A stretch of 64,000 nt of DNA from Nitrosopumilus sp. (lineage in GTDB: Archaea > Thermoproteota > Nitrososphaeria > Nitrososphaerales > Nitrosopumilaceae): assembly GCA_965205215.1 (NCBI GenBank), contig OZ242041.1:1536001-1600000 (forward strand), read 5' to 3'. Below the pieces are notes generated by a model. It was not told where the DNA came from. It saw only the letters and a list, made by a program, of their open reading frames with translations, and did no database searches. Below are positions 35,193 to 58,157 of this stretch, piece after piece. Both the position numbers and the translations under genes were made by a program. Position 1 is the stretch's first letter. Each line of letters opens with the position of its first letter.

Positions 35193-37475
35193 TTACTGGA
35201 ACGGATCGATAAATGGGCAGTTGACAATGTGATCGCTGTCCATCGGACGGGCCAGACTGGCAGTTATCAGCCCCTCATCCAGGAATGCTCTGATGTCGCC
35301 CGTAGTCTCAAGCAGCCTTGCGTCTGCAGGATCCTTCCACTCTATGATATAGATGCGCCACATGGGCGAATACCCCGCATCGCCAAGGGCGGAGCTTGCA
35401 ATGCCGGGCTGGAAGCCCAGAGGACCTGAACCGGCAATGCCGTTTGCAAACTGGTACAGGTCAACTGCGGCAGAGTTTGCAATGAGTGCGGCAGAGGTGT
35501 CTGCAGAGACGACCCCCATCATGTTGGCAGGCCCGCTCGGCGTGGCGTCTGTCACTATATAGTATATGGTACGACCGTCAGGGCCCCATCCGCGGTGGGC
35601 AACAAACGTTACGGTCATCTCCTCGGTGTCGATTTCAAGTATCTGTCCCCCTCCGTATGGCGTGTCGTCGTTTATGGATGCGTCCTCCTTTACCACCATC
35701 TGTCCGCCCGGCCATACGATGTGTGGCATGTTGATCACCACGCCGATGTCGTCAAGCGATACCTCGCCGGCGTCGGCAGCCTCCATTATGGCGGCCTCCG
35801 AATCAAGTATGCGCGGGGAGGCCGAGTCGGCCCACGTCACATGCGTCTGGGCGGCAAGTGCGCTGTACGTATCTGCCTGCTCCGGGGTGCTTGTAAACAC
35901 CTGGTTCTGGAATCCGTGTATGCCGTCACCCTCGACCCCGTTTGTAAACATGTACGTCGTGGAGAGCGCCGCATCGGGGGCGTTCCCAAGGAATGGTGCC
36001 ATCTCGACCCTCCAGTCTTGGAGTTCGGTGATTATGCCGGCATGGATCTCGTCATTAGTGTCCGTGATGACATAGTACACATCCTGTCCCTCATGGTATC
36101 CCATGTGCAATGGAATGTCTACGGCAACGTTGGCCCTCGAAAGCCTCAGCTCCATCTCTTTTGGCTCCTCCATCATTGCTTCCTCTTCCTGCGCCATCAT
36201 TGCTTCCTCCTCTTGTGGCATCATCTCCTCTTCTTCCTGCGCCATCATTGCTTCCTCCTCTTGTGGCATCATCTCCTCTTCTTCCTGCGCCATCATTGCT
36301 TCCTCCTCTTGTGGCATCATCTCCCCTTCTTCCTGCGCCATGGGTTCCATCGCGGCATCGTATGGGGCAAAGTTCTTTGGAAGCTCCATAATCTGCTCTG
36401 CGTCAAGCGGCAGCAACGGCATGCTGATTACAATAGGAATCTCAGTCAGAAGCACGTCGCCGGATCCCTCTGCGGCCATGATCGAGTCCTCGGACGTCAG
36501 GAGTCGCGGATCCGCGTCGTTGGTCCACGTCACGTGCACGTGCGTGGAGAGCGGACTATACGCCTCGTCGCCCGGAACCGACGTGAACACCTGCCTCTGG
36601 AATCCGTGCACGCCGGGTCCCTCTATGCCGTTCGTGAAGAAATACACCTTTGAGACGGAGGCGGCACCGACGTCTGCAAGCATTGGCACGTGCACAGAGT
36701 CAAGTCCCTGCAGCCTTGTCACCAGTTCGGAGTGCGTCTTGTCGCTGGATTCCAGTATCGTATTGTACACCTTCTGTCCGTCGTAAAATCCATAGTGGAG
36801 CGGCACCCGCAGTATCTTCTCAGGCGTCCTGTCCAGCGTTTCTGACTGCACCAGTGACATTGTGAATCGAGGCATGTTGATCACGACGTCAAGCTCGGTC
36901 AGTTCCAAGTCACCCGCCTCGGCGGCCGACAGTATGGCCTGCTCGGATGTCAATATCCTTGGAAGCACGCCCTCGTACCACGTCACGTGTATGTGTCCGG
37001 CCAGCGGCGAATAGTTGTCCTGTCCCGGAACCGACGTAAAGACCTCGCTCTGGAATCCGTGCACGCCGCTGCCGCGCACGCCGTTTGTAAACATGTATGT
37101 GACAGAGCGCACGTCCTCCGGGACCGACGCCAAGGACGGCACGTACTCGACAGTCCAACCCTGGGCCTGGGTGATCACGTCGGCATGCACGCGCTCACTT
37201 GCCTCCGTTATGATGTAATATGCGGACTGGCCGTCATAATACCCCTTGTGAAGGGGCACCGTGATGCCAGCAACGTCAACGTCCGGGGCGTCCTCGGCCG
37301 ACTCGCCTGCCTGCGCCGCAACCCATGCGTCGCGGCCGCCCTCAATCTCGGAGCAGAGCTGCAGTCCGCACACGTCGTTGTTTGCGCCAAAAGCCTCGGT
37401 CAAGGGACTTGGGCCGGAACCCGTCACTAGAAGAGGGGCCACGGATATTGCGGCAATAATGAAAAGGTAATTCAT
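35193..37475 (-). CDS. Secreted protein with four repeated DUF7482-like domains and a Met/Glu-rich tandem-repeat linker
   Basis: Signal peptide; VCGLQLCSE motif; four units H.G...G..Y.....S/T...F.NG..G.G..GFQ...YS...W...(N/S)(M/C)P. Confidence 0.85.
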   Translation of the reverse strand: MNYLFIIAAISVAPLLVTGSGPSPLTEAFGANNDVCGLQLCSEIEGGRDAWVAAQAGESAEDAPDVDVAGITVPLHKGYYDGQSAYYIITEASERVHADVITQAQGWTVEYVPSLASVPEDVRSVTYMFTNGVRGSGVHGFQSEVFTSVPGQDNYSPLAGHIHVTWYEGVLPRILTSEQAILSAAEAGDLELTELDVVINMPRFTMSLVQSETLDRTPEKILRVPLHYGFYDGQKVYNTILESSDKTHSELVTRLQGLDSVHVPMLADVGAASVSKVYFFTNGIEGPGVHGFQRQVFTSVPGDEAYSPLSTHVHVTWTNDADPRLLTSEDSIMAAEGSGDVLLTEIPIVISMPLLPLDAEQIMELPKNFAPYDAAMEPMAQEEGEMMPQEEEAMMAQEEEEMMPQEEEAMMAQEEEEMMPQEEEAMMAQEEEAMMEEPKEMELRLSRANVAVDIPLHMGYHEGQDVYYVITDTNDEIHAGIITELQDWRVEMAPFLGNAPDAALSTTYMFTNGVEGDGIHGFQNQVFTSTPEQADTYSALAAQTHVTWADSASPRILDSEAAIMEAADAGEVSLDDIGVVINMPHIVWPGGQMVVKEDASINDDTPYGGGQILEIDTEEMTVTFVAHRGWGPDGRTIYYIVTDATPSGPANMMGVVSADTSAALIANSAAVDLYQFANGIAGSGPLGFQPGIASSALGDAGYSPMWRIYIIEWKDPADARLLETTGDIRAFLDEGLITASLARPMDSDHIVNCPFIDPFQ
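36171..36341. repeat. Coding 24-bp (higher-order 48-bp) tandem repeat x7
   Basis: Encodes alternating MAQEEEEM/MPQEEEAM units. Confidence 0.95.
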
Positions 37476-41104: not shown

Positions 41105-43894
41105 TTGAAAATAACTGCCATATCTCTTCTTGCGGCCATGCTGGCCGTTGGCGTCTTAAGCGTGACATTTTCAAGCTCGTCAGCAGCATACGCCGCCGCC
41201 GATTACCTCCCTCCTGCAAAGCAGGTTGAGATGGATGTGGACCCAGAAGACGTGACATGCCAGGGTGAGCGCGTGCTGTTGCTCAGGACAAACGGTGCGC
41301 CGATTTGCGCACTCCCGGGATCCGTGGACATGATCGTCGAGCGCGGCATTGCAACGGTAGTGGAGCGTGATCCGGCAGACGAGGCGCCTGCCGAATCCGA
41401 CCCGTTAGCCTCCGACCTGCGGGTCTCGATGACCGTATTCTCAGACCGGTTTGCCGTAATGAAAGAGGACGTAGTCAAGATCACGCGCGACGCCATTGCG
41501 GCGTACGAGTCAGACGGTGACGCGTCCCTGGATGCAATGACCGCGGGCTCATCGATGTATGACGGCAGCGGCCCGTATCCGTTTGTGGTAGACTCCGAGA
41601 CCATGATCATTGTGGCCCACGGGTTCATGCCCGAAAGGGTCGGGATGGTCGCCGAGCCGTTCCTAACCAGCGGAATGACGTTTGACGAGCTGAGGTCCGA
41701 GCTGGAATCCGAGGGCAGCCTCTGGCTGATGTACACGTTCATAGACCCCGAGTCCTCGCACAACGCGACCAAAAAGGCATACCTTGAGCTGCACGACGGA
41801 CTGATCTTTGGCAGCGGGATTTACCCCGATGGCCTAGAGGTGCAGATGATGAAGGCCATGTGGGTTGTCAGCAATGCCGTTGAGATGTACGACGAGTCCG
41901 GCATTGACGCGTTTGGTATGATAAACGATGCCGCCGCCGACTACGTGCCCGGCGACATCTATCCGTTTGCGTCCAGCCTCACTACGATGAACGTGGTTGC
42001 GCACGGGGCGGATCCGAGCCGCGTCGGGGACAAGTCCGTGGTGCTGACTGGCGCCAACAAGGATCTTGAGCGCATACTGCTGGAGTCTGAGATGAATGGC
42101 GGGACGTGGGTGGCGTATACCTTTAACAACTTTGAGACAGGCGCCGAGGAGACGAAGCTTTCCTGGGTTGTGGCCCGGGATGACTATATCCTTGGAGCCG
42201 GCTTCTACCCAGACGGGTACCAGACCTCCAAGGTACACGCCATAATGTCGACGGACAACGCCCTCTTCCTGTACGCGCAGTACGGCGAGGACGCATTCCC
42301 AAAGATCACCGCCCTGAACGTGACGGAGGAATGGTACCCGTTTGTCAGTGATGGCGAAATCGGACTTGAGATAGCAGACGGCTCGATTCTGGACAGGACC
42401 GGCGTCCTGTACTGGGAGGCGCACGAGTTTAACGCGGCATACGGGCCCGTGATGGACGTACTGGAATCCGGACACGGGGCGTACATATCGTACGTGTTCC
42501 TAAACCCCGAAACCGGCATGCAGCAGGCCAAAAAGGCCTGGATCGTCCTTCACGACGGGTACATCTTTGGGGCCGGTTTCTACCTTACAGGCGTGCACGG
42601 GGATGTCACGGCCGTAAAGTGGTCGATAGACACTTCAGTCGAGCTGTACAAGCTACAAGGCGCGGAGGACACGTTTGCGGCCATAACCTCGGCGGAGCCT
42701 GCCTCTGAATCATATCCGTTCGTCATAGACTCGGACAGCTTTGATCTGACGGCCCACGGGGCAGACCCGGGCCTGGTCGGCTCCAACTTCTTTGACCTGG
42801 TCACCCCGGACAAGGACGAGGAGCAGATCATGGCCGACCTGTCAGACGGTGACGGCGCCACGACATGGGTAAAGTACGTGTTTGTCAACCCGGAGACCGG
42901 CATGGACGCGGAAAAGACCGTGCTACTAAAGATGCATGACGGCTACATATTCGCTGCAGGGTATTATCAGGACGACGACGATATGACCTCGACAGACGGC
43001 GCAGCCGAGGCGGCGGTAGTAAAGCTCAAGTGGACCGACTCGGCTCAGTTTGCCGGCATCTACACGGCAGACCAGAACGGGTACTATCTGGACAACGGCA
43101 TGACAGTCGCCATAGAGCCGTTTGGATTTGAGAGCACGTCCATAGAGGACGTGGTTTCCGGCGCGGCAGACTTTGGCATTACGGGCGCCGACGAGCTCTT
43201 GGTAGCGCAGTCCAACGGAGCAGATGTGCGCGCCTTGGCAGTCATATACCAGCAGAGCCCGCTTGTGGCGATGGCGCTGGAGGAGTCCGGAATCACAGAG
43301 CCAAGGGACTTTGTGGGAATGAAGTTCGGGGCGCCCGGAGGCGAGTTCATCATAAGGAGCATGCTGGCCAGCCAGGACGTAGACTATGACAGCGACATAA
43401 CCGTTGTCCCCCTGGAGTTTGACATATCGCCTCTGCTAGACGGCGAACTGGACGTCATGGCAGCGTACCTGATCGACCAGCCGCTCATTGCAGAGGATCT
43501 CGGACATAAGACCGTCACAATACACCCGGCCGAGTACGGGGTGAACTTTTACGGCGACGTCCTGTTCACGAGCAACGGCCTGATCCAAGACGATCCGGAG
43601 CTGGTGCAGGGATTCGTCGATGCGACGCTGGCCGGGTGGGAGTACGCACTGGAAAACGTCGACGAGTCTGTACGCCACACGCTGCTCTATGTGGAGGACG
43701 ATGTCGGCATTTCCGAATCCTACCAGCAAAGGATTCTACAGGCCTCCATCCCGCTGATCAAGCCCGATGGAACGGAGGTCGGGCAGATGAGCCACGACAA
43801 ATGGATGCAGTCGTACGAGCTCCTGCTGGACTTCGGCATTATAGACTCTGAGCTTGACGTAGGCGAGTCGTACACGACGGAGTTTCTAAACTAG
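41105..43894 (+). CDS. Secreted protein: 4 tandem single-Cache-like domains plus C-terminal NMT1/THI5-type ABC substrate-binding domain
   Basis: Signal peptide; PPAKQ..C..C surface-protein motif; four YPF...W..Y.F.NP..G....K......HDG.IF..G.Y units; LKWTDSAQFAGIY, YQQSP, YGVNFYGDVLF, GWEYALEN. Confidence 0.85.
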   Translation: MKITAISLLAAMLAVGVLSVTFSSSSAAYAAADYLPPAKQVEMDVDPEDVTCQGERVLLLRTNGAPICALPGSVDMIVERGIATVVERDPADEAPAESDPLASDLRVSMTVFSDRFAVMKEDVVKITRDAIAAYESDGDASLDAMTAGSSMYDGSGPYPFVVDSETMIIVAHGFMPERVGMVAEPFLTSGMTFDELRSELESEGSLWLMYTFIDPESSHNATKKAYLELHDGLIFGSGIYPDGLEVQMMKAMWVVSNAVEMYDESGIDAFGMINDAAADYVPGDIYPFASSLTTMNVVAHGADPSRVGDKSVVLTGANKDLERILLESEMNGGTWVAYTFNNFETGAEETKLSWVVARDDYILGAGFYPDGYQTSKVHAIMSTDNALFLYAQYGEDAFPKITALNVTEEWYPFVSDGEIGLEIADGSILDRTGVLYWEAHEFNAAYGPVMDVLESGHGAYISYVFLNPETGMQQAKKAWIVLHDGYIFGAGFYLTGVHGDVTAVKWSIDTSVELYKLQGAEDTFAAITSAEPASESYPFVIDSDSFDLTAHGADPGLVGSNFFDLVTPDKDEEQIMADLSDGDGATTWVKYVFVNPETGMDAEKTVLLKMHDGYIFAAGYYQDDDDMTSTDGAAEAAVVKLKWTDSAQFAGIYTADQNGYYLDNGMTVAIEPFGFESTSIEDVVSGAADFGITGADELLVAQSNGADVRALAVIYQQSPLVAMALEESGITEPRDFVGMKFGAPGGEFIIRSMLASQDVDYDSDITVVPLEFDISPLLDGELDVMAAYLIDQPLIAEDLGHKTVTIHPAEYGVNFYGDVLFTSNGLIQDDPELVQGFVDATLAGWEYALENVDESVRHTLLYVEDDVGISESYQQRILQASIPLIKPDGTEVGQMSHDKWMQSYELLLDFGIIDSELDVGESYTTEFLN

Positions 43895-44331: not shown

Positions 44332-44460
44332 TCACTCTACCGTATCGTGCGGCTTTGTGTTCTCATCATGGCAGTCGCATGAGCACAGGTAGGTGGAGTG
44401 GTTGTTCTTGCAGTCTATGCATTCGTAGTGTTTGCGGGCCTCACATGCGGCGCAGATCAT
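44332..44460 (-). CDS. Cys/His-rich microprotein (42 aa)
   Basis: MICAACEARKHYECIDCKNNHSTYLCSCDCH; AT-rich promoter-like sequence upstream. Confidence 0.65.
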   Translation of the reverse strand: MICAACEARKHYECIDCKNNHSTYLCSCDCHDENTKPHDTVE

Positions 44461-44644
44461 TGCTTGCTCTATGCACGCTTTGAATTTTAGCTTTTCTAGG
44501 GTAGGTGCGCGGCACGTATTGCGCCTTGTGCTTGTTGAAGACATACCTGACCCCCCATCTTTCCAGTTTCAGTCCGTAACCTCTCCACTTTTGGCCAGGC
44601 CGGCGCCTCTTTCCAGCGGCCGCGGCGGCAGAACAGCGACATCA

Positions 44645-47600
44645 TTAGCGGCAATAAAGCGTCGGCGGATCCGCGGAGGGCAGAACGCCGCCCGGGACAA
44701 GTATGTCAGACAGATAGTATCCGGACCCAAACACCAGGCCGTCATACATGACAAGCCATGCGCGCTTGGTCTCCTCCTGTCCCGTTACGGGGTTCGTGTG
44801 CGTGTAGTCGACCCACGTGCCGACCCCGCGGCTTGTCTTATCCAATATATCCCGCGCCGGGAGCGCCCCGACGATGGCATCCCAGTCCGGCGTGCCGCCT
44901 ATCCGGCCCGGATCCGCGCTCTGCGCCAGCGTGCTTCCGGTCTGCGGGTCGACTACAAAGCCGTACGTGGAGACCGGCGCAGGCGGGACTGCGTTTATCG
45001 AGGCGAGGGCCGAGATCTGCCCGTCGCGCTGGTACTGTAATATGTTGCCGTACACTATCGACTGCACGCTAGAGTCCACCGTGTAATAGCCGGAGCCAAA
45101 GACCAGCCCGTCGCGCATCTGGAGGTAGCTGCGCTTGATCTGCTCCACGTCCGTGGCCGGGTTGTGGAATATGTACGTGACCCACAGGCTGCCCTCCCGC
45201 CTGAGCTCTGCAAGGACGTCGGCGACGGACCTGCTGGAGGTGTCCAGGATGGTCTCGGGCTGCCCCACCCTGGCGGGCACGACGCCGTCGGCCAGCCTCG
45301 TCCAAGTTGCCGCATCAATCACGAACGGGTACAGGGCGTCGGTGGTGATTGGCGCGTCAGGCGTGATTATGTCCACCCACGCGTCGTTGGCCTTGTTGGC
45401 CTCGTAGACGCGTATTGCGTTGCTTACGGCAAACTTGACGTCGGACTCTGATACGTCAGACGAATAGTGCCCCACCCCGAATACCAGGCCCCGGTGCAGG
45501 ACCAGCCATGCGTGCTTGATCTCCTCCTGGCCCGTTATGGGATTAGTGTGCGTGTATGCAACCCATGTGCCGGCTCCGCGGCTTATTTTATCCACCACAT
45601 ATTGTGACGAGAGTACGGATGTGATGGCACTCCAGTCGGCTGTACCGCCTATCAGGCCCGGGTTCACGTTCTGCGCCAGCGTGCTTCCGGTCTGCGGGTC
45701 GACTACAAAGGCGTACGAGGTGAACGGTTCGGGCGGTATGGAGTTTATCGAGGCCAGGGCCGCGTCCTGCCCGTCGCGCTCATACGACAGTATGTGGCCG
45801 TGCAGTGTAGACTGCACCTGGGAGTCCAGCGTATAATAGCCGGAGCCGAAGACCAGCCCGTCGTGCAGCTCAAGGTAGCTGCGCTTGATCTGTTCTATGC
45901 CCGTGGCCGGGTTGTGGAACGTGTACGTGACCCACAGGCTGCCCTCCCGCCTGAGCTCTGCAAGGACGTCGGCGACGGACCTGCTGGAGGTGTCCAGGAT
46001 GGTCTCGGGCTGCCCCACCCTGGCGGGCACGACGCCGTCGGCCAGCCTCGTCCAAGTTGCCGCATCAATCACGAACGGGTACAGGGCGTCGGTGGTGATT
46101 GGCGCGTCAGGCGTGATTATGTCCACCCACGCGTCGTTGGCCTTGTTGGCCTCGTAGACGCGTATTGCGTTGCTTACGGCAAACTTGACGTCGGCCTCTG
46201 GTATGTTGGATGAATAGTACCCCGATCCAAATATCAAGCCCCGGTGCAGGACAAGCCACGTGCGTTTTGCCTCTTCTTGTCCTGTTATCGGCTCCGTATG
46301 CGTGTAGCTGACCCACATGCCGGGCTCGCGGTTCAGTTCACCCAGGATGTCCTGCACGGAGAGCACTTGGAGAATGGCACTCCAGTCGGTTGTGCTGCCT
46401 ATCAGGCCCGGATCCACGTTCTGCGCCAGCGTGCTTCCGGTCTGCGGATCGACTACAAAGCCGTACGTGGAGGTCGGCTCCTCGGGGACGGCATTTATGA
46501 GGGCGATGGCAGCGTTCCTGCCCTGGTTGTCGTGTTCCAATATGTTGGTATACGCTATGCCCTGCACCTGGGAGTCCAGCAGGTAGTAGCCTGAACCGAA
46601 GACCAGCCCGTCGCGCATCTGGAGATAGGTGCGCTTGAGCTGCTCCACGCCGGTGGCAGGGTTGTGGAACGTGTACGTCAGCCACGTTCTGCCGTTCTGC
46701 TCAAGATCTGCAAGGACGTCGGCAACGGACCTACCGGAGGTCTCCAGGATGGTCTCGGACTGACCCACCCTGGTGGGCACGACGCCGTCGGCCAGCCTAG
46801 TCCAAGTTGCCGCGTCTATAACGAACGGGTACAGGTCGTCAGTCACGACGGGTTCGTCAGGCGTGATGATGTCCATCCACGCGTCGTTCTCACGGTTGGA
46901 CTCGTAGATAAACCGGGCATAATCGGTCACCGACTGGGTGTCGGCGTCTGCAATAGTATATGGAGATATGAAGGCGTAACCGTCGTGAATGGTAACCCAG
47001 GCGCGCTTGATCTGGTGTATGCCGGTATATGAGTCAAAAAACGAATACTGCGACCAGTACGAGTCCCCATCCTCAAAGCCGCTCAAATCGTAGCTGCCGA
47101 TTGCCAGTGCCACATCTGGAAGTGGTCCGACTAGACCAGGCACCGTGCCATGGGCAAGTATGTGCGTGCTGCTTCTCACCAGCGGATAGAGATCTATTCT
47201 GTTGAGCGCTCCGGAATTAATCAGGTCAAAGGCGGTTGTGGGATCGTTTCTGTACGTATAGATGGCGCCGTCTACCACAGACTGGGACCGAAGGTCCGGC
47301 AGCGAGTAGCTTGCGCCAAATATGTAACCGCCATGCAATATGATGTAAGTGCGGGTGAGTTGGTTCGTCTGGGTTGCGGGGTTTAGATCCATGTGCCATA
47401 TCCAGACGCCGCCGTCCCGTAGTTCCGCCAGGATGGTCGCCAGGGGCTTGTCGGCCTCCTCAAGGTGCGTGCTGGTGGTCCCCACCAAGTTGGGCGTCCT
47501 GGCATGGGCCACCACCTCGAAGGTTGCCGCATCCAATACAAAGGACGACTTTGTTGACCGCGGATCAGGCGCATCCGGCGTTATCATCCCAAAGGCACTC

Positions 47601-48556
47601 GTGCCGTGGGCCGTATACAGGATTCTGGCCGAGTCCGCCTGTGCCTGCGCCCGGGAGTCGCTTGGGTAGTAGCCGGTGCCAAACACATAGCCGTCGTGCA
47701 GGTATAGCCAGGTGCGCTTGATCTGGCCCATGTCGGTGCCAGGGTTGTGGAACGTATATGTCGCCCACGTGCCCTCGTTTGCCCCGAGATCCGCACGGAC
47801 GTCGGCGACGGACCTGCTGGAGGTGTCAAGGATGGCATCCGGCTGCCCCACCCTGCTAGGCACCACCTCGTCGGCCACCCGCATCCAAGACGAGTAGTCT
47901 ATCACAAACAGGTAGAGTTCGTCCGTAAGGACGGGATCATCAGGAGTAATACTGTCAAAAAAGGCCTGCGCATTACCGTACGATTCGTACTGCCTTACCT
48001 TTTCCTCTATGAACAGCTGGACCTCGGTGTCCGGCAGGTAGTGCCCCGCGGCAAATATGTAACCGTCGTGCAGGTACAGCAGCGCGCGTGTCGTCTGATC
48101 CTCCAGGTTGGCAGGGTTTTTGTCTATGTACGTGACCCACACCCGGTCATTTTGCGCCAGATCGGCACGGATTTGGCTGATGGACCTGTCTGCCGCCTCC
48201 AAGGCTTCCGCCCGCTGGCCCACCTGTCCGGCATCCGCACTATGCGCCACTATCCTCAGGGTATTGAGATCCGCCACGAACGAGACCGGTGCGCCGGCGC
48301 CCGCCGATCCTGCAGACGTGATTGCGGTAAACGCGGCCTGTCCTTGCGCCGCGTATAGCGCCTGGATCCTGTCCACCTCTGTACCGATCCGACTGTCAAT
48401 GCTGCTTTGATCATACAGCGTACGTCCTTGCTGGGATTGGCCATGGGCGTCCGCTGCGGGAGCAAGGCATGCTACAAGCGCGATCAGCACCACTGCGGTG
48501 ACGGCAGTCGACACTGGGGTTGTACTTGAGCGTAACAAGGATTTGGGCATCTCCAC
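44645..48556 (-). CDS. Secreted protein of 10 tandem single-Cache-like domains, no output domain
   Basis: Signal peptide ending ADA-H; ten units of about 125 aa each ending K/R..(W/Y)....(H/R)DG..FG.G.Y; no TM after the signal. Confidence 0.85.
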   Translation of the reverse strand: MEMPKSLLRSSTTPVSTAVTAVVLIALVACLAPAADAHGQSQQGRTLYDQSSIDSRIGTEVDRIQALYAAQGQAAFTAITSAGSAGAGAPVSFVADLNTLRIVAHSADAGQVGQRAEALEAADRSISQIRADLAQNDRVWVTYIDKNPANLEDQTTRALLYLHDGYIFAAGHYLPDTEVQLFIEEKVRQYESYGNAQAFFDSITPDDPVLTDELYLFVIDYSSWMRVADEVVPSRVGQPDAILDTSSRSVADVRADLGANEGTWATYTFHNPGTDMGQIKRTWLYLHDGYVFGTGYYPSDSRAQAQADSARILYTAHGTSAFGMITPDAPDPRSTKSSFVLDAATFEVVAHARTPNLVGTTSTHLEEADKPLATILAELRDGGVWIWHMDLNPATQTNQLTRTYIILHGGYIFGASYSLPDLRSQSVVDGAIYTYRNDPTTAFDLINSGALNRIDLYPLVRSSTHILAHGTVPGLVGPLPDVALAIGSYDLSGFEDGDSYWSQYSFFDSYTGIHQIKRAWVTIHDGYAFISPYTIADADTQSVTDYARFIYESNRENDAWMDIITPDEPVVTDDLYPFVIDAATWTRLADGVVPTRVGQSETILETSGRSVADVLADLEQNGRTWLTYTFHNPATGVEQLKRTYLQMRDGLVFGSGYYLLDSQVQGIAYTNILEHDNQGRNAAIALINAVPEEPTSTYGFVVDPQTGSTLAQNVDPGLIGSTTDWSAILQVLSVQDILGELNREPGMWVSYTHTEPITGQEEAKRTWLVLHRGLIFGSGYYSSNIPEADVKFAVSNAIRVYEANKANDAWVDIITPDAPITTDALYPFVIDAATWTRLADGVVPARVGQPETILDTSSRSVADVLAELRREGSLWVTYTFHNPATGIEQIKRSYLELHDGLVFGSGYYTLDSQVQSTLHGHILSYERDGQDAALASINSIPPEPFTSYAFVVDPQTGSTLAQNVNPGLIGGTADWSAITSVLSSQYVVDKISRGAGTWVAYTHTNPITGQEEIKHAWLVLHRGLVFGVGHYSSDVSESDVKFAVSNAIRVYEANKANDAWVDIITPDAPITTDALYPFVIDAATWTRLADGVVPARVGQPETILDTSSRSVADVLAELRREGSLWVTYIFHNPATDVEQIKRSYLQMRDGLVFGSGYYTVDSSVQSIVYGNILQYQRDGQISALASINAVPPAPVSTYGFVVDPQTGSTLAQSADPGRIGGTPDWDAIVGALPARDILDKTSRGVGTWVDYTHTNPVTGQEETKRAWLVMYDGLVFGSGYYLSDILVPGGVLPSADPPTLYCR
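45172..46194. repeat. Exact 273-bp direct repeat (45172-45444 = 45922-46194) within a 750-bp period
   Basis: Line-by-line identity; a third, diverged copy begins near 46672. Confidence 0.95.
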
Positions 48557-48579: not shown

Positions 48580-48587
48580 CTATAAAG
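48580..48587 (-). promoter_or_regulatory. TATA box of the 10xCache gene (CTTTATAG)
   Basis: About 25 nt upstream of GTG 48556. Confidence 0.6.
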
Positions 48588-48602: not shown

Positions 48603-50095
48603 AACTTTGTTTCCTAATTCCCCCCGTGCACGCCGGCCAAGTCCAAGTCGGGCGGCGGCGTGGCCGTCATGCCGTCATGCCGTCCCCCTCCCGCCTCCCG
48701 GGCAATCGACTCGTCCCTCCACCTGTTGTACAGGGCCACCTTGAGCCTCACCTCCTGCACGATGTTCTCCCACTTGAGGGCCATCAGATGCTCTCCGAAC
48801 AGGCGCTTGAATGCTGAAAACACGCTCTCCGCGAGCCACCTTTGGCCGTAGCCTATCCGGGTCTTCCAGTATGTCTGGTTCTCCTTCTTCTCCTCCCTGC
48901 TCATCAGGTCCAGGCGCGTCGCGTCTGGGCTTCCCCCCAGCTGGTCCCTTACGGACTCGCCCCACGCGTCGCCGGATCCCTTGCCGCGCGCCGTCACGTT
49001 GATTTTGTGCAGGATGCCGGGGACCATCTGGGCCCGCGCGCACGCGGCCGCGTTCTCCCTCGAGCCGTACGCGGCATCGCCGAGCACGACGTCGGGCGCG
49101 TCATGGGCGCCGCGGGGGGCGCCGCCTGCGCGCAACGACGCGAGAGGGGGGACGCCGGACGCGAGAAGGTTCTCGTATCCCGTGACGCTGCTGCTGCCGG
49201 CGGCTCCGGGAGGGGGTGCGGCCGGCGGCTCCAGACTGTCCCCCGCGCCGTCCCCGGCCCCCGCGACCTGCCCGAGCAGCGCGCCGAACATGGCCGAGTC
49301 ACCCACGGAGTCGTCTGTGACCTCCAGGGCCAGTATCTTCTTGGTCTCCGTGTCTACCAGAATGTGCATCTTTACAAAGCCCCGCCTCTTCTTCCACTTG
49401 GCCCTCATCCACTCGCCCCTGTTGTGCTGCTTGAGGCCGCTCGCGTCGAGCGCCAGTATCCTCCGGCTCTTCCTGTCCGATACCGTCACCACGCCGCCGG
49501 AACCCCGGCTTATGTCCGCGTCAAGCCCGGTGATCCGCTTGTACAGCTGGCTGTACGCGGGGGTGTTGGACCTGCCTGCCATCCTCCCGACCATCCCCTC
49601 GAGCTGCCTGTACTTGACCCCCAGCGCGGACCTGAGGGCGGCGGCCATCATTACGAGCGTCTCCGCGTACTGGTACGGGGCGCCCACCTTGCCCTCGTTT
49701 GCGCGCCTTACGTCGTCCTCCCACTCGGGATTGTACTCTATGACGAGGTCCGCCCCGCGCCTGACGTACTTTTCGTTGTCCGTCTTTGCGGCTGCGCCGT
49801 TACGCGCCTGGCTCATGGGTAGCGCCCCTCCACGCTCCTGCCTCCCCTGTGGCCGCGCCGCGCCCTCGGGAAAAGGGCCGGATCATGATTAAATACGGAC
49901 TCTGCGAACCGATGTTGACGTCTGTATAGGCACACCGATGTTGGATGCATCGTGTCTATCTTTCGTCATATACACTTCAAGGCGTGCATGAACGTTCCTT
50001 GCCCGTTTGGCCAGATTTTATTGATCAAATTGGAGACTGCGCCGCCGCAAGGCCGCCGTAGCAGGTGCCTACAGGCAGAATTAGGAAACAAAGTT
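48603..50095 (-). mobile_element. Intact IS5-family (IS903-group-like) insertion sequence, 1493 bp
   Basis: Perfect 18-bp TIR AACTTTGTTTCCTAATTC (48603-48620; inverse at 50078-50095); TSD GCCATGAG at 48595-48602 and 50096-50103. Confidence 0.95.
48614..49816 (-). CDS. IS5-family DDE transposase
   Basis: LALDASG..RGEW..RRGFVKMHILVD, LGDAAYGS, YGQRWLAESVFSAFKRLFG; stop codon lies inside the TIR. Confidence 0.93.
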   Translation of the reverse strand: MSQARNGAAAKTDNEKYVRRGADLVIEYNPEWEDDVRRANEGKVGAPYQYAETLVMMAAALRSALGVKYRQLEGMVGRMAGRSNTPAYSQLYKRITGLDADISRGSGGVVTVSDRKSRRILALDASGLKQHNRGEWMRAKWKKRRGFVKMHILVDTETKKILALEVTDDSVGDSAMFGALLGQVAGAGDGAGDSLEPPAAPPPGAAGSSSVTGYENLLASGVPPLASLRAGGAPRGAHDAPDVVLGDAAYGSRENAAACARAQMVPGILHKINVTARGKGSGDAWGESVRDQLGGSPDATRLDLMSREEKKENQTYWKTRIGYGQRWLAESVFSAFKRLFGEHLMALKWENIVQEVRLKVALYNRWRDESIAREAGGGRHDGMTATPPPDLDLAGVHGGN

Positions 50096-50427
50096 GCCAT
50101 GAGCAGTCTTCCCAATGGTACGTCAAAAACAGGGCCACGCAGTAAGAGATCAAAAAAATGGCGGCCCCGTCGGCGTCCTGTGACCAAGAGTAGGCAGGCC
50201 AAGGCGCGACCTGTAACAACCCGGCTGAGCAGAAGCTCAGGATGCCGGCCCCAGAGAACCGACGCGCCGGGATCAGGCCGTCCCGGCGAGTGCGCCGCGC
50301 GCCGCACCGCGTCCTTGTACGGCATGCGGTTTTGCGCGCACCGTGCAGGAGGCCCGGCAAGCGTGCAACCGGCCGCGGGCGCCTCCGCACCGAGACTGTT
50401 ATTATATACAGGCGCCGCACCGCGTGC

Positions 50428-51483
50428 ATGGGCCTCAAGAGATACGCCGCCACCAGGGTTGCCACCATGTTCGGTGTGCTGATGATAACGCTGCTCATCA
50501 CAATCGCGCTTGTAGGCTCCAATATGGACAGCATACTAAAGCAGGGGATTGCATTCCAAGTGAGAAGCCAGATTACGGAGAACCCGGCCACTGCAGAGAG
50601 GTTCACGTCAGTGGAGGAGTTCGAGTTGTTCGTGCAGGAGCAGATAGAGGCCAGGACGGCCCTGCTAGGGCTTGACGAGCCGTGGTACTCGCCGCAGCGC
50701 ATAGGGATCACAATGTACAAGATAATGCTGCTTGACTTTGGACAGGCCACCTTCATCACAAGCGACTCGGGCTCCTCGGACGTCAGGGAGATAATACTTG
50801 AAAAGCTCCCAAGGACCATACTCCTGTTCACGACGGCCACTGTTGTAATCTCAATCGTGGGCATATTCCTAGGGGCCCTTGCTGGAAGCAGGACGGGCTC
50901 CGCAATAGACAAGCTGACCTCCAGCTTTGCCGTCGTCAGCTCGAGCTTTCCGGTATGGTGGGTGGGGATGATCATGATATTCCTGTTTGCATTCACATAC
51001 CAGGTGTTTCCGGCAAGGGCGACGCCGGAGATCCTGCCAGACGAGCCGGGATACGCCGCGGCCCTGCTGTACCACATGACGCTTCCCCTCATCACCATAG
51101 TGCTGATAGGGTTCGGGGCGTGGGCGTACCTTGTCAGGAACTTTATGGCGGGGATAATGCAGGAGGACTTCATATCGGCAAAGAGGGCCATCGGCATAAG
51201 GCGCAAGAAGATCATATACGCGCACGCCCTGAAGAACGCCGCCCCGCCCATAGTCACCATACTGGCCCTCAGCCTGTCCGGCTCGCTTGGCGGCGCCATC
51301 ATAACGGAGGCGGTGTTTGACTGGCCTGGCATGGGGCGGCTCTACTTTGAGGCCATAACGGTAATGGATCTGCCCGTAATCATAGGGGCCACGTACATGC
51401 TCACGGTGTTCTTTCTTGCCAGCATATTTACCGCAGACATACTGTACGGCTATTTCGATCCCAGGGTGAGGACGTCGAGTTGA
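50428..51483 (+). CDS. Peptide/nickel ABC transporter permease (DppB/OppB-like)
   Basis: LGLDEP, LDFGQ, SFPVWW, EDFISAKRAIG, HALKNA, ITEAVFDWPGMG, DPRVR. Confidence 0.93.
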   Translation: MGLKRYAATRVATMFGVLMITLLITIALVGSNMDSILKQGIAFQVRSQITENPATAERFTSVEEFELFVQEQIEARTALLGLDEPWYSPQRIGITMYKIMLLDFGQATFITSDSGSSDVREIILEKLPRTILLFTTATVVISIVGIFLGALAGSRTGSAIDKLTSSFAVVSSSFPVWWVGMIMIFLFAFTYQVFPARATPEILPDEPGYAAALLYHMTLPLITIVLIGFGAWAYLVRNFMAGIMQEDFISAKRAIGIRRKKIIYAHALKNAAPPIVTILALSLSGSLGGAIITEAVFDWPGMGRLYFEAITVMDLPVIIGATYMLTVFFLASIFTADILYGYFDPRVRTSS

Positions 51484-53084
51484 GCGCGGGTGACAGCGGG
51501 GCGGCGGGGCCTCCGGGAAAGGAGGGGCCGCACGAAAAAAAAGAAGGGGAGGTAGAGTACGCGGCACCTGCGCCGGCCGCGGGGCCGCGGCCGTCTCCTA
51601 CGTCACCGTCACACCCGACGCCGCCGTCGCCGCCGAGGACACCGGATGCGGTAGCTGACGCGGGAGGGTTGCGCGACACGTGGCGCGAGATCTTGTCAAG
51701 CCGCATGGGGGCGGCAGGCGTTGTAATACTCGCGGCCCTGATAATTACATCGGCGGCCACCATAGTTGCCATCCCAGTCGAGACCCTCCAGGAATGGAAC
51801 AATCCAAAGAGCTGGATATCATATCCAAAGGCCGCCGTCCCCGCGTGGACCAACGCCATCCTGCCGCAAAAGATACCCGAACACATGATGTTTGACGACC
51901 CCGCAGTGTCAGAACGCGCCGTGGCCGTGGACGGCGCCGCAGGTGCGATAACTGTCACCGAGCACGAATTCACGGTGGACTACGAGTACGACGACTTTCC
52001 AAGCGACTTCATCTACAGCTTTTCGGCAGGGTATGAGGGATCCCCGCTCCTAGAGGTGTCGGCGGACAGGCCGGACGGGAGCACGATCCTGCTGCTCTCA
52101 AAAGCCCTGCCGCGCCTTGCGGCGGATCGTGGAAGTGAGGGGGGGCTGGCAGACTATAGCGGCGGCCCCGCGACGCATTCGGAGCGCATATTCTCGACGG
52201 ACAGCACGATACGGAAGAACATTGCGATGCAGGCGCCCTCCATATTCAGGCACGACACGTCGGGCGCGTCGGCCGAAGATGTGCTGTTCTCTGACGCCGC
52301 GGACGGCTCCGTGCTGCGGGGCGTGTACACGTTCCGCGTAACCGTGTCTAGTTTGGAGGGGTTCGACATGCTCGAGTCACGGCTCGTGGTAGGCGGCAAG
52401 GCGTTTGGAATAATGGGCACCGACGAGCTGAGGCGCGACCTTGCAATAGGGCTGCTGTGGGGAACGCCGCTTGCCCTGTTCATCGGAATCACGGTGGCCG
52501 TGGCGTCGGTGGTTGCGGGGCTCCTGTACGGGGTCTACGCCGGATACCGCGGCAAGAAGACCGACGAGGCCATGATGAGGTTCAACGACGTGATATACGC
52601 GTTGCCGGCGCTGCCGTTTCTAATCATACTCTCGGTTACGATCAGCAACAGTATACTGCTCATGGTCGGGTTCCTTGCCATGTTCGGATGGGTCGGGGTC
52701 GCAAAGGTGGCGCGCAGCATGTCGCTCCAGATAAAGACCAGGGGATACGTGGACGCGGCCGAGACGATGGGCCAGAGCCGCTCCAAAATAATAACAAGGC
52801 ACATAGTCCCGCAGCTGCTGCCGTACGCGTTTGCAAGCATAGCGATATCGGTTCCGGCCGCCATCACGACGGAGGCGGGCCTGAGCTTCCTGGGGCTGGG
52901 CGACCCGAGCTTCCCCACATGGGGGCAGATACTGCACGATGCAAACACGTTTGGCGCCGCGGCGAGGGGGTTGTGGTGGTGGATGGTGCCGCCTGGCGTC
53001 ATGATAGCGATAACGGGGCTCGCCTTTGTGTTTATAGGAAACGCCCTAGACAGCATAGTAAACCCGCGGCTCAGGCGGCATTAG
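51480..53084 (+). CDS. Peptide/nickel ABC transporter permease (DppC/OppC-like) with large extracellular loop
   Basis: MGTDELRRD, YVDAAETMG, RHIVPQ, EAGLSFLGLG, TWGQIL, NPRLR. Confidence 0.93.
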   Translation: MSAGDSGAAGPPGKEGPHEKKEGEVEYAAPAPAAGPRPSPTSPSHPTPPSPPRTPDAVADAGGLRDTWREILSSRMGAAGVVILAALIITSAATIVAIPVETLQEWNNPKSWISYPKAAVPAWTNAILPQKIPEHMMFDDPAVSERAVAVDGAAGAITVTEHEFTVDYEYDDFPSDFIYSFSAGYEGSPLLEVSADRPDGSTILLLSKALPRLAADRGSEGGLADYSGGPATHSERIFSTDSTIRKNIAMQAPSIFRHDTSGASAEDVLFSDAADGSVLRGVYTFRVTVSSLEGFDMLESRLVVGGKAFGIMGTDELRRDLAIGLLWGTPLALFIGITVAVASVVAGLLYGVYAGYRGKKTDEAMMRFNDVIYALPALPFLIILSVTISNSILLMVGFLAMFGWVGVAKVARSMSLQIKTRGYVDAAETMGQSRSKIITRHIVPQLLPYAFASIAISVPAAITTEAGLSFLGLGDPSFPTWGQILHDANTFGAAARGLWWWMVPPGVMIAITGLAFVFIGNALDSIVNPRLRRH

Positions 53085-56744: not shown

Positions 56745-58157
56745 GTTATAAACAAGGCATAATAACATGATCACCTTGCGTGTTACGTGTTGCATGCATA
56801 CCGCAAGTACCGGGTCGCCATATCGCTGGCGGCCGACCAGGTGCGCCTCATCGACTCGTACCGCGCTGCCCAGCGCCACGCGTACAACTGGTCCGTCGGG
56901 AGGATCATGTCGGGCGGTGCCGTAAGCGAGTACGGGCTGTACAAGGAGCTGACGGCCAGGCGCCGGGAACATGAGTGGATGCGCGCCGCTCCCGCGTGGA
57001 TACAGCGTGCGGGCATCCAAGACGCATGCACCGCGCACAAACTGGCAGCGAGGTCCGGCGGCGGCCTCAGGCACCGCACGAGGAAACGGCATTCCGCAAT
57101 CTCCGTGAGGTGCGCGCTCGCGCCGCGCACAGTCGACAGGCACGGCATCATGCTGCCGTCGTTTGGAACTGTCCGCGCGGCCGTACCCAACGAGGTCATG
57201 GAGCACGAACCAAGATCGTACGAGTTCACCAGGACGCGGAGCGGCCGGTACGTGCTGTACGTGTCGTGCCGCGTCGGGATGCCGCCGCAGCGGAGCGTGC
57301 CCGCGGACGCGACGGTCAAGGGGGTTGACCGCGGCGTCGCGGAGCCCACGGTGGTCGTGACCATGGACCGCGGGGGAAGTGCAGTCGCAAAGGACTCCTA
57401 CGGCACGGCCGCGCCGTTCAGGGACGGCCGCGCGGAATACCAAGAAATGCAGTCAAGGATGTCCAAGATGAACAGGCACTCCAACAGGTTCAGGAGGCTG
57501 CACGCGCGGCTCCGCAGGCGCCTGCAGAAGACCAGAAGCCGCCGCCAGTACGCGGAGTGCATCGCGGCCAAGCACGTGTGCGACGACCACGCACCCGGCG
57601 TGATCGTGCTCGAGGACCTCAAGGTATCAAGCATGACCCGCAGGGGGCGCGGCTCCCACAAGAGGGGGCTCAACCGCGAGATGCGCTTCGTGCGGCACCG
57701 CGCCGTCGAGCAGCGCATACGAAACCGCGCCGAGCTCGCGGGCATACAGATCATCACGGTCGACCCCAGGTACACGTCGCAGGAGTGCGCGAGGTGCGGG
57801 CACGTCGACAAGTCCTCGAGGGTGACGAGGGACATGTTCAGGTGCACCAAGTGCAGTTACGTTCAACAGGCCGACGTCAACGCGGCCATGGTAATCGGGG
57901 GATACGGCCTGCCGCCCACAGACCCCGGTGACACGACGAGAAAATGGCAGGCCACGGGGGCAGGAACGGCCCTCGTAAGACGCGAACTGGACGCGCGCCT
58001 CAACTGCTTCTCAGAGGCGGTCGGGGGCCCCGCGAGGGGGCACGAGAGCCAAGTGCCGGCGCGTTCCCTTTCCCGCAGCGGAATGAAGAAAGAACGTCAG
58101 AGTGCAGGCGTGGTGTTTGGCCGGGCTGCCGATTACGGCATGCCCAGCTAATATCAC
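56745..58157 (+). mobile_element. TnpB-only IS200/IS605-superfamily element (IS1341-like)
   Basis: TCACG at 56741-56745 and 58154-58158 flanks tnpB; no tnpA present; boundaries inferred. Confidence 0.6.
56787..58151 (+). CDS. tnpB: RNA-guided endonuclease TnpB
   Basis: RuvC I GVDRG, RuvC II VLEDL, Zn ribbon TSQECARCG...FRCTKC, RuvC III ADVNAA; GTTATAAA box upstream. Confidence 0.93.
   Translation: MLHAYRKYRVAISLAADQVRLIDSYRAAQRHAYNWSVGRIMSGGAVSEYGLYKELTARRREHEWMRAAPAWIQRAGIQDACTAHKLAARSGGGLRHRTRKRHSAISVRCALAPRTVDRHGIMLPSFGTVRAAVPNEVMEHEPRSYEFTRTRSGRYVLYVSCRVGMPPQRSVPADATVKGVDRGVAEPTVVVTMDRGGSAVAKDSYGTAAPFRDGRAEYQEMQSRMSKMNRHSNRFRRLHARLRRRLQKTRSRRQYAECIAAKHVCDDHAPGVIVLEDLKVSSMTRRGRGSHKRGLNREMRFVRHRAVEQRIRNRAELAGIQIITVDPRYTSQECARCGHVDKSSRVTRDMFRCTKCSYVQQADVNAAMVIGGYGLPPTDPGDTTRKWQATGAGTALVRRELDARLNCFSEAVGGPARGHESQVPARSLSRSGMKKERQSAGVVFGRAADYGMPS

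Follow-up and report, generated by a model that had tools for sequence, protein, structure and literature searches.

The window analysed here, a 64,000-nucleotide stretch from the genome of Nitrosopumilus sp., a sponge-associated ammonia-oxidising archaeon, contains on its minus strand a gene (44645..48556, hereafter P0001) encoding a 1303-residue protein with a signal-peptide-like N-terminus, ten repeat units that are predicted to adopt the fold of sCache_2 sensor domains, and a short tail. A layout in which a transmembrane segment and an output domain follow the sensor was looked for and is not present; P0001 is not a Cache signal-transduction receptor. It belongs to a large, uncharacterised family in which a sensor fold seems to be used for binding and not for signalling. 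A sequence-only reading of the gene had described a signal peptide, ten units of about 125 residues, a short tail, and no transmembrane, HAMP, kinase or MCP domain, a layout borne out by translation, motif scanning, Kyte-Doolittle analysis and Pfam. The features of the gene are as follows; the six-letter signatures give the residues at six mapped pocket positions, in order.

44645..48556, minus strand: poly-Cache gene P0001, 1303 aa plus stop codon (open reading frame (ORF) list, translation, Pfam)
48581..48586, minus strand: TATA-like box TTTATA, about 27 nt upstream of the P0001 GTG (read from the sequence)
48446..48556, minus strand: putative signal peptide, aa 1-37, with putative cleavage at its end (sequence and hydrophobicity scan)
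48029..48409, minus strand: unit 1, aa 50-176, degenerate pocket VFHYDT
47657..48028, minus strand: unit 2, aa 177-300, class A pocket YFDYFK
47294..47656, minus strand: unit 3, aa 301-421, degenerate pocket SFHHDT
46946..47293, minus strand: unit 4, aa 422-537, pocket YLHYFK, with His kept at the position of PscD His103
44705..46945, minus strand: units 5-10, aa 538-1284, three tandem two-unit modules, each class A (YFDYFK) then class B (YFQYHK)
46574-46945, minus strand: unit 5, class A
46205-46573, minus strand: unit 6, class B
45824-46204, minus strand: unit 7, class A
45455-45823, minus strand: unit 8, class B
45074-45454, minus strand: unit 9, class A
44705-45073, minus strand: unit 10, class B
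44648..44704, minus strand: C-terminal tail, aa 1285-1303 (19 aa), LVPGGVLPSADPPTLYCR, Pro-rich, ending ...LYCR, a candidate surface-anchoring tag

The start codon is GTG at 48556 or, alternatively, ATG 6 nt downstream at 48550, and the putative TTTATA box fits an archaeal promoter that would give a leaderless or very-short-leader mRNA. The signal-peptide-like region starts with a basic n-region (K5, R9), continues with AVTAVVLIALVACLAPA as its hydrophobic part and finishes with A-D-A directly before H38; Cys30 is located in the h-region. A Kyte-Doolittle scan for hydrophobic 19-mers found no second membrane-type segment beyond the N-terminus, and the combination of a signal-peptide-like N-terminus with an otherwise non-hydrophobic sequence supports, in silico, an extracytoplasmic location.

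The ten repeat anchors identified by motif scanning lie at aa 163, 287, 408, 524, 648, 771, 898, 1021, 1148 and 1271, i.e. with a spacing of 116-127 aa and units of about 125 aa. The units can be aligned over their full length, with pairwise identities of 25-92%. A repeat search at the DNA level resolves units 5-10 into three tandem copies of a 750-nt A-B module. Copies 2 and 3 of this module (44705-46204) are 86% identical overall and 64-96% identical in 50-nt windows, yet share a 273-nt perfect tract, which indicates recent gene conversion within the gene. The reading frame closes with a clean stop after the tail, and no Cache-like reading frame lies downstream of it.

The repeat units are predicted to adopt an sCache_2-type fold

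Whole P0001 matches two Cache families in Pfam, sCache_2 (PF17200; 54.1 bits, cut-off 25) and dCache_2 (PF08269; 41.2 bits, cut-off 26.5). The Pfam scan found no HAMP, kinase, MCP or other output family and no solute-binding family in the protein, and an NCBIfam scan added nothing significant. The dCache_2 match is what tandem sCache_2 domains would be expected to give, because dCache_2 is described as an sCache_2 duplication by Upadhyay 2016 (PMC4822843); in the model described below, the units each carry their own N-terminal helices and best match single Cache domains.

The sequence-only reading had suggested profile scans of each repeat as a check, and a match above the cut-off is obtained for the whole protein and not for its parts. 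When the units were scanned singly, none of the ten reached the sCache_2 cut-off (the best, unit 5, scored 15.2 bits), and three gave sub-threshold Cache matches. The score of the whole protein thus accumulates from weak matches, and structure prediction and a bridging alignment carry most of the weight in assigning the fold. A search of the unit profile against PDB sequences gave no meaningful direct match; with single units below the cut-off and no solved structure matched by the profile, the P0001 units therefore constitute a divergent branch.

For modelling, an alignment was built from 30 two-unit modules taken from P0001, its two paralogues and the neighbouring gene P0002. The AlphaFold2 model of units 7-8 (mean pLDDT 89.2, pTM 0.66) has the Cache/PAS-like fold on which the sequence-only reading depended, each unit being arranged as helix-helix-strand-strand-helix-strand-strand-strand. 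The best structural match of unit 7 (VIA-align) is 4K08 (Z 11.2, rmsd 2.8 A over 117 residues, 21% identity), followed by 4EXO (Z 10.5) and TlpB 3UB6 (Z 8.9), all of which are sCache_2 sensors; unit 8 matches Cache/PDC-type sensor domains with Z 7-9.6. Target-normalised TM-scores from Foldseek are 0.59-0.65 against 4K08, 2QHK and PscD 5G4Y. The nearest protein Atlas clusters of the two-unit module are likewise all Cache/sCache_2, the taxa given there referring to generic sCache_2 clusters and not to the poly-Cache family.

The link to solved structures can also be made by sequence in two steps, through the more canonical family member P0177 (whole-protein sCache_2 score 135.9 bits). The first step is a match of the unit profile to the final unit of P0177 (E 1.3e-20); the second consists of matches of that P0177 unit to 4K08 (E 1.1e-7) and PscD (5G4Y; E 1.2e-4). 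A second family member, P0209, gave only a weak match to TlpB (E 0.042) and P0177 was used as the bridge instead. An sCache_2-type fold is thus a high-confidence prediction for the P0001 repeats.

The poly-Cache arrays examined lack signalling domains and are frequently fused to solute-binding domains

Among proteins of similar length 152 homologues were found, including a 97%-identical full-length orthologue of P0001, and 122 family proteins were taken for surveys of architecture. Homologue lengths cluster at about 800, 1050, 1300, 1550, 1800 and 2100 aa, the size classes reflecting how many A-B pairs are present (one to six). Proteins with six units are commonest (60 proteins), followed by those with eight (35), seven (7), ten (5), twelve (4), fourteen (3) and sixteen (2). 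Where names are given among the best 120 of the 152 homologues, they are those of Cenarchaeum or Thaumarchaeota metagenome-assembled genomes (MAGs). The Pfam lists of the same 120 include no accession recognised as an output domain; PF27194 recurs in them.

Of the 122 family proteins, 117 have a hydrophobic segment at the N-terminus alone; the remaining five each contain a single internal hydrophobic stretch, which no domain follows. None of the 122 has a transmembrane segment plus cytoplasmic domain. The possibility that P0001 is a truncated receptor, raised in the sequence-only reading, is rejected on these grounds, together with the clean stop and the lack of a downstream Cache frame.

When the profile was run against 1.84 billion representatives (50% identity), it matched 1792 of them with E<=0.001; the number falls to 625 for E<=1e-10 and to 202 for E<=1e-30. 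Among the top 150 of the 1792, nearly all contain 2-16 matched stretches, and single-unit receptors may well occur among the weaker, unlisted matches. The architecture, for which the sequence-only reading had suggested searching Nitrososphaerota and symbiont MAGs, is accordingly not rare, with hundreds of metagenome clusters. Among 140 new representatives, 60 are built from Cache units alone. A Pfam scan of 25 representatives, chosen for having extra regions, assigned their fusion partners as follows.

12/25 representatives: solute-binding domains (SBP_bac_3, Peripla_BP_6/ANF_receptor, SBP_bac_5)
3/25 representatives: vanadium-haloperoxidase-like pair (DUF6851 + VCPO_2nd)
1/25 representatives: full 5'-nucleotidase
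3/25 representatives: only LVIVD, Ig or Laminin_G-type modules
6/25 representatives: nothing identifiable
0/25 representatives: HAMP, kinase, MCP or cyclase domain

The solute-binding domain sits N- or C-terminal to the Cache array, depending on the member, and four solute-binding domain families are found fused to Cache arrays when the P0001 genome is included. Further array fusions, to BspA-type LRR, cupredoxin, LVIVD, haloperoxidase-like and 5'-nucleotidase domains, occur among P0087, P0088, P0103, P0108, P0111, P0129, P0156, P0196 and P0177.

Residues aligned with the PscD carboxylate pocket fall into discrete conserved classes

According to Brewster 2016 (PMC5062169), PscD grips the carboxylate of its ligand via Tyr90, His103, Tyr143 and Lys156, between Trp92 and Trp145. 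In the chained alignment (unit numbering with I785 = 1) these residues correspond to Y42 (Tyr90), F44 (Trp92), position 56 (His103), Y94 (Tyr143), position 96 (Trp145) and K107 (Lys156); by alignment to PscD, these positions would line a cavity in the P0001 units. The Tyr/Tyr/Lys triad is kept in eight of the ten P0001 units and lost in units 1 and 3; by the residue found at the position of PscD His103 (Asp, Gln or His), the units that keep it divide into three pocket variants.

The same pattern is seen across the 122 family proteins, in which the triad Y42, Y94 and K107 is kept in 622 of 876 units. The residue counts at position 56 of these 622 include 250 His, 164 Gln, 154 Asp and 34 Asn, and the commonest signatures (YFHYFK, 156 units; YFDYFK, 153; YFQYHK, 86) form discrete classes. 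A given class recurs at the matching unit position across orthologues of 55-75% identity. Core residues remain conserved in the 103 units that have neither Y42 nor K107 (Y17 in 97%, A55 in 97%, W91 in 92% and F119 in 99%). Folding therefore does not require the triad, and the fact that other units retain it suggests that it is under functional constraint. TlpB carries Asp where PscD has His103, as judged from its alignment with the P0177 unit. An Asp binds urea in TlpB, which provides a lead and is not evidence for urea as a ligand of P0001.

A C-terminal Cys-Arg tag is shared with solute-binding proteins of the same genome

The tail of P0001 ends in Cys-Arg (the CR tag), and the subfamily closest to P0001 ends ...[V/I/Y/T]CR in the homologue survey. 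Only two cysteines are present in P0001, Cys30 in the putative signal peptide and Cys1302 in the tail; the median cysteine content in the genome is 1.4 per 100 aa. In this genome (G000) 28 of 1859 non-overlapping ORFs end in CR, compared with about 2 expected by composition and 6.3 by marginal frequencies. Val, Ile or Met occupies position -3 in 22 of the 28, and proline is abundant further upstream. Of the 28, 19 begin with a strongly hydrophobic segment, versus 357 of the 1859 overall. In 17 of the 28, among them proteins of 3896, 3061 and 1932 aa, no cysteine other than that of the tail is found beyond the N-terminal segment. Solute-binding proteins and giant surface-type proteins account for most of the set. 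Nine CR-ending proteins were scanned for domains: six are clearly solute-binding and one weakly so, one contains an Ig domain, and one is unassigned. Further examples of the tag in G000 are found at C1:34462-46152, C1:1934857-1944042 and C1:470584-471852.

The tag is not a family-wide feature, being absent from all 24 complete C-termini of solute-binding homologues from other genera. Five genomes of relatives were compared: solute-binding proteins carry CR in G327 (3/3) and G330 (1/2) and in none of 14 from G328, G329 and G331, and the poly-Cache proteins of these five genomes split likewise, with CR in 4/4 versus 0/9. The tag is thus present in G000, G327 and G330, with none in G328, G329 and G331; it tracks the genome rather than the protein family and so behaves like a sorting signal. 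We infer anchoring via the tail Cys because archaeal solute-binding proteins must stay attached to the cell, and the data suggest that the CR tag is a candidate new archaeal covalent surface-anchoring signal.

Archaeosortase-type signals (PGF-CTERM, PEFG-CTERM) consist of a motif followed by a transmembrane helix and a basic cluster. The CR tag resembles them as a C-terminal tag found on many secreted proteins of one lineage; it differs in that the Pro-rich tail ends ...LYCR, with a two-residue ending and no hydrophobic helix. An archaeosortase-type signal was rejected for this reason, the tail ending within two residues of the Cys and containing neither a hydrophobic helix nor a hydrophobic 19-mer. 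A narrow search of the open-access literature found nothing relevant describing the CR tag.

Genomic distribution, neighbourhood and occurrence in sponge metagenomes

The genome that contains P0001 (2.10 Mb, one contig) carries five poly-Cache genes with 38 units in total: three intact 10-unit proteins, P0001 included, and two 4-unit proteins with solute-binding domains. One of the latter is the convergent neighbour P0002, in which NCBIfam WING-49 matches aa 37-84 with 41.9 bits; the other, a paralogue in L005, has SBP_bac_3 after its Cache units. A 2135-aa homologue, P0003, ends in a Cys-containing segment that resembles WING-49, as judged by eye. Repetition of binding domains is also seen outside the Cache family: a 1623-aa frame of the same genome (G000:C1:779223-783662, plus strand) comprises four tandem ANF_receptor-type solute-binding repeats, and frames of 2364-3463 aa with several ANF_receptor-type repeats occur in other Nitrosopumilaceae genera. 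In these genomes, polymerisation of binding modules seems to be a general trait. The genes beside P0001 are listed below.

41105..43894, plus strand: convergent neighbour P0002, 929 aa, with an N-terminal hydrophobic segment, WING-49, four Cache units and an NMT1/SsuA-like solute-binding domain
48614-49816, minus strand: insertion sequence (IS) transposase DDE_Tnp_1 (71.8 bits), directly upstream of P0001, between it and ATP-binding cassette (ABC) permease genes
50242-51483 and 51480-53084: two divergent ABC permease genes, beyond the IS transposase

P0002 is related to P0001 by domain content and is not a conserved neighbour. The only syntenic locus is that of the closest genome (L009), which is without the IS and without the whole of P0002.

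Within the Nitrosopumilaceae the distribution of the family is patchy, with matches in 44 of 301 sampled genomes and in 8 of 25 genera. One genus matches in 10 of 10 genomes, with up to 115 first-look candidates per genome, and three large genera gave no match among the genomes searched (0/47, 0/32 and 0/20). The 16 related loci found in named records with a two-unit protein as query are all from Nitrosopumilaceae, Nitrosopumilus sp. or Cenarchaeum sp. MAGs.

Near-identical P0001 DNA is present in sponge metagenomes. A search with sampled words from the stretch covering units 1-4 (46946-48556) identified four runs from two studies that contain at least 89% of the words; runs labelled as sponge metagenome from four further studies contain 35-50%. 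A coral metagenome run, with a word share of 0.36, was not counted as habitat evidence. Six contigs of a sponge metatranscriptome fall on P0001, four of them with 0-4 differences per 100-400 nt, and these give weak support for its transcription, stretches of P0001 that have no RNA contig carrying no meaning. The RNA contigs are 100-900 nt long, and short-read assemblies break in the repeat region 44705-46204.

A proposed role in capturing small anionic solutes

We propose that P0001 is a surface-tethered, non-signalling, multivalent binder of small anionic solutes, a reading, with ligand binding as its conjectural step, in which we place about as much confidence as doubt. The protein would be exported through its N-terminal signal peptide, which would then be cleaved, and would probably be held at the cell surface via the CR tag, with Cys1302 as the presumed point of anchoring. 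Ten sCache_2-type putative ligand-binding modules, strung together with neither a transmembrane segment nor a cytoplasmic output, would then capture small anionic solutes and retain them around the cell. Such solutes would bear a carboxylate or similar group and could come from the host or the environment. P0001 would be accessory to the large set of ABC solute-binding proteins of the organism, to whose transporters the ligands might be handed over.

The proposal is supported by the conservation of the pocket, the occurrence of solute-binding fusions on either side of the array, the CR tag shared with solute-binding proteins, and the polymerised solute-binding domains in these genomes. The multivalent small-molecule binder envisaged in the sequence-only reading is likewise consistent with the pocket residues in eight of ten units, with a triad that is dispensable for the fold, and with the solute-binding fusions, adhesion or scaffolding being less likely alternatives. 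Of the two locations that reading had offered, soluble or surface-located, the surface appears likelier in view of a tag common to solute-binding proteins, and a soluble protein less likely.

Several points weigh against the proposal. No ligand can be assigned to P0001 with confidence. Only units 1, 3 and 4 have His at position 56; four units (2, 5, 7 and 9) carry Asp there and three (6, 8 and 10) carry Gln, so the chemistry need not involve a carboxylate. The conserved Tyr, Phe and Lys residues could instead serve stability or contacts between domains. To the failure of single units to reach the sCache_2 cut-off, and of their profile to match PDB sequences directly, is added an uninformative genomic context: across 19 loci no transporter or other conserved neighbour family was found, transposases recurring in 3 of the 19, and the adjacency of P0001 to ABC permease genes therefore carries no weight. 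Export, signal-peptide cleavage and anchoring are each deduced from sequence. The RNA contigs stem from one library, in which carry-over of DNA is possible. Finally, a variable number of A-B pairs (1-6) combined with gene conversion is typical of adhesins and variable surface proteins, and some family members are fused to LVIVD, BspA-type LRR, Ig or Laminin_G domains.

These last observations bear on an alternative that we regard as unlikely, namely that P0001 is an adhesin or a host-recognition protein, i.e. a surface fibre that binds acidic groups on host matrix polymers or proteins and holds the symbiont in the sponge or marks it as 'self'. Here the repeat number, which varies by whole A-B modules (6 to 16 units), and gene conversion between copies would be as expected, as would fusions that extend to SdrD_B, the expansion of the family in particular lineages, the near-identical DNA in sponge metagenomes, and the presence of the CR tag on giant surface-type proteins of 1932-3896 aa. 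Surface recognition was also the role proposed for enriched Cache domains by Haber et al. 2021 (PMC7848895). The commonest fusion partners are, however, solute-binding (12/25) or exoenzyme-like (4/25) and not adhesion modules, and the conserved residues are those that would form a small buried ligand pocket. We also know of no Cache domain that binds a polymer, which we count against an adhesin.

It is improbable that the array is a structural stalk or a surface-layer scaffold, in which Cache would serve as a rigid repeat that projects other domains or builds a coat and has no specific ligand. The inter-unit linkers of about one residue in the model (a strand at 117-124, then a helix at 126-144), the many unrelated functional domains that arrays adjoin, and the retention of the triad-less units 1 and 3 would all suit such a role. 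It is difficult to reconcile with a triad that is found in 622 of 876 units though dispensable for the fold, and with pocket classes that are conserved by position across orthologues. P0001 and 60 of the 140 representatives are, moreover, arrays with nothing to project; where solute-binding domains are present they lie on either side, and the array is not consistently placed between anchor and cargo.

Indirect sensing, in which the ligand-loaded array would signal by docking on a membrane receptor or transporter encoded separately, in the way that certain solute-binding proteins act on chemoreceptors and kinases, is very unlikely. The Cache fold is otherwise almost always sensory (Upadhyay 2016, PMC4822843), and signalling by way of solute-binding proteins is an established principle (PMC8050422). 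No kinase, receptor or other gene is conserved beside the family, however, ten modules are hard to square with one docking event, and archaeal Cache histidine kinases are reported by Galperin et al. 2018 (PMC5847659) almost only from Methanomicrobia. That P0001 is a decaying or unexpressed repeat gene kept by chance beside an insertion sequence is barely credible: an IS transposase lies directly upstream and the closest orthologue, in L009, is seemingly split into two frames, but the 3.9-kb frame is intact, as are two 10-unit paralogues in the same genome and a 97%-identical full-length orthologue, the pocket residues are conserved, and contigs of an RNA library match.

Capture of solutes by a tethered array, which we prefer for P0001, can be extended to a broader picture that is doubtful as it stands. 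Sponge-associated ammonia-oxidising archaea would have turned Cache into a non-signalling binding module, polymerised into arrays of 6-16 units or joined to ABC solute-binding proteins and exoenzymes, the arrays and their fusions would form an unrecognised extracytoplasmic solute-capture layer of multiple specificities, and one sub-lineage would fix its arrays, solute-binding proteins and giant surface proteins by a new [V/I/M]-Cys-Arg sorting signal, the Cys being covalently attached, for example lipid-linked.

Relation to known Cache and solute-binding proteins

The sCache_2 sensors of known structure are parts of chemoreceptors and histidine kinases and include Adeh_3718 (4K08, acetate), PscD (5G4Y, C2/C3 carboxylates), a V. 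parahaemolyticus MCP (2QHK/4EXO, pyruvate) and TlpB (3UB6, urea). The P0001 units resemble them in predicted fold (Z up to 11.2) and probable extracytoplasmic location, and are collinear with their motifs: Y-x-F/W in strand 1, Y-x-F/W-x-N/K-P, Lys on the next strand, and G-x-G-Y-Y-x-x-D at the end. Whereas the sensors occur singly, between two transmembrane helices, and drive a HAMP/MCP module or a kinase, P0001 has ten units, no transmembrane segment after them and no output; its single units fall under the Pfam cut-off and have Asp or Gln for the pocket His in 7/10.

More than one Cache module in an extracellular polypeptide is also found in dCache sensors and in the metazoan calcium-channel subunit alpha2-delta (two dCache_1 domains), which is tethered at its C-terminus. 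However, dCache is a fixed two-module unit within a receptor, and the P0001 family has 6-16 units, each with its own N-terminal helices in the model; alpha2-delta differs in that P0001 is without a VWA domain or channel partner. The Cache domains of alpha2-delta, an extracellular protein that is not a kinase, have amino acids and gabapentinoids as ligands (PMC9901441). In its proposed mode of working, P0001 would be analogous to the ABC solute-binding proteins, as a non-signalling extracytoplasmic solute binder, and it shares with those of its own genome a signal peptide and the C-terminal CR tag. It differs from them in fold, in having no conserved adjacent permease or ATPase, and in offering ten putative sites versus one.

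Upadhyay 2016 (PMC4822843) presents Cache as the largest family of prokaryotic extracellular sensor domains, serving signal transduction with the exception of one neofunctionalised family. Haber et al. 2021 (PMC7848895), who worked on the lineage and habitat of P0001, report three Cache Pfams enriched in sponge Thaumarchaeota, two of them sponge-specific, and propose a role in cell-surface recognition; their text on Cache is a Pfam domain count and does not describe the poly-Cache architecture, the missing outputs, the pocket classes, the fusions or the CR tag. No description of the architecture was found in open-access full text, in agreement with the statement in the sequence-only reading that no characterised protein is known to have it. 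P0001 thus represents a known fold in an undescribed, widespread and non-signalling architecture, the enrichment of Cache in sponge Thaumarchaeota having been published already.

If correct, the proposal would establish a second use of the Cache fold, namely binding without signalling, in arrays of up to 16 units; this use is supported by how often arrays are fused to transporter binding proteins. The proposal would also open a molecular route to the question of how archaeal sponge symbionts deal with host-derived metabolites, so far approached only via counts of enriched domains, and the pocket classes make the idea directly testable on single domains. If the CR tag anchors proteins, it would represent a new archaeal protein-sorting system and would allow the surface proteome of the lineage to be predicted by a simple rule.

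Other features of the window

The window holds several mobile elements. A TnpB/Cas12f-like protein is encoded at 56787-58151 on the plus strand (Cas12f1-like_TNB, 68.9 bits). Just downstream of P0001, at 44335-44463 on the minus strand, lies a small ORF of 42 codons (MICAACEARKHYEC...) with eight cysteines in CxxC-like spacing and no Pfam match. A 760-aa protein encoded at 35193-37475 on the minus strand contains four DUF7482 stretches (541.8 bits).

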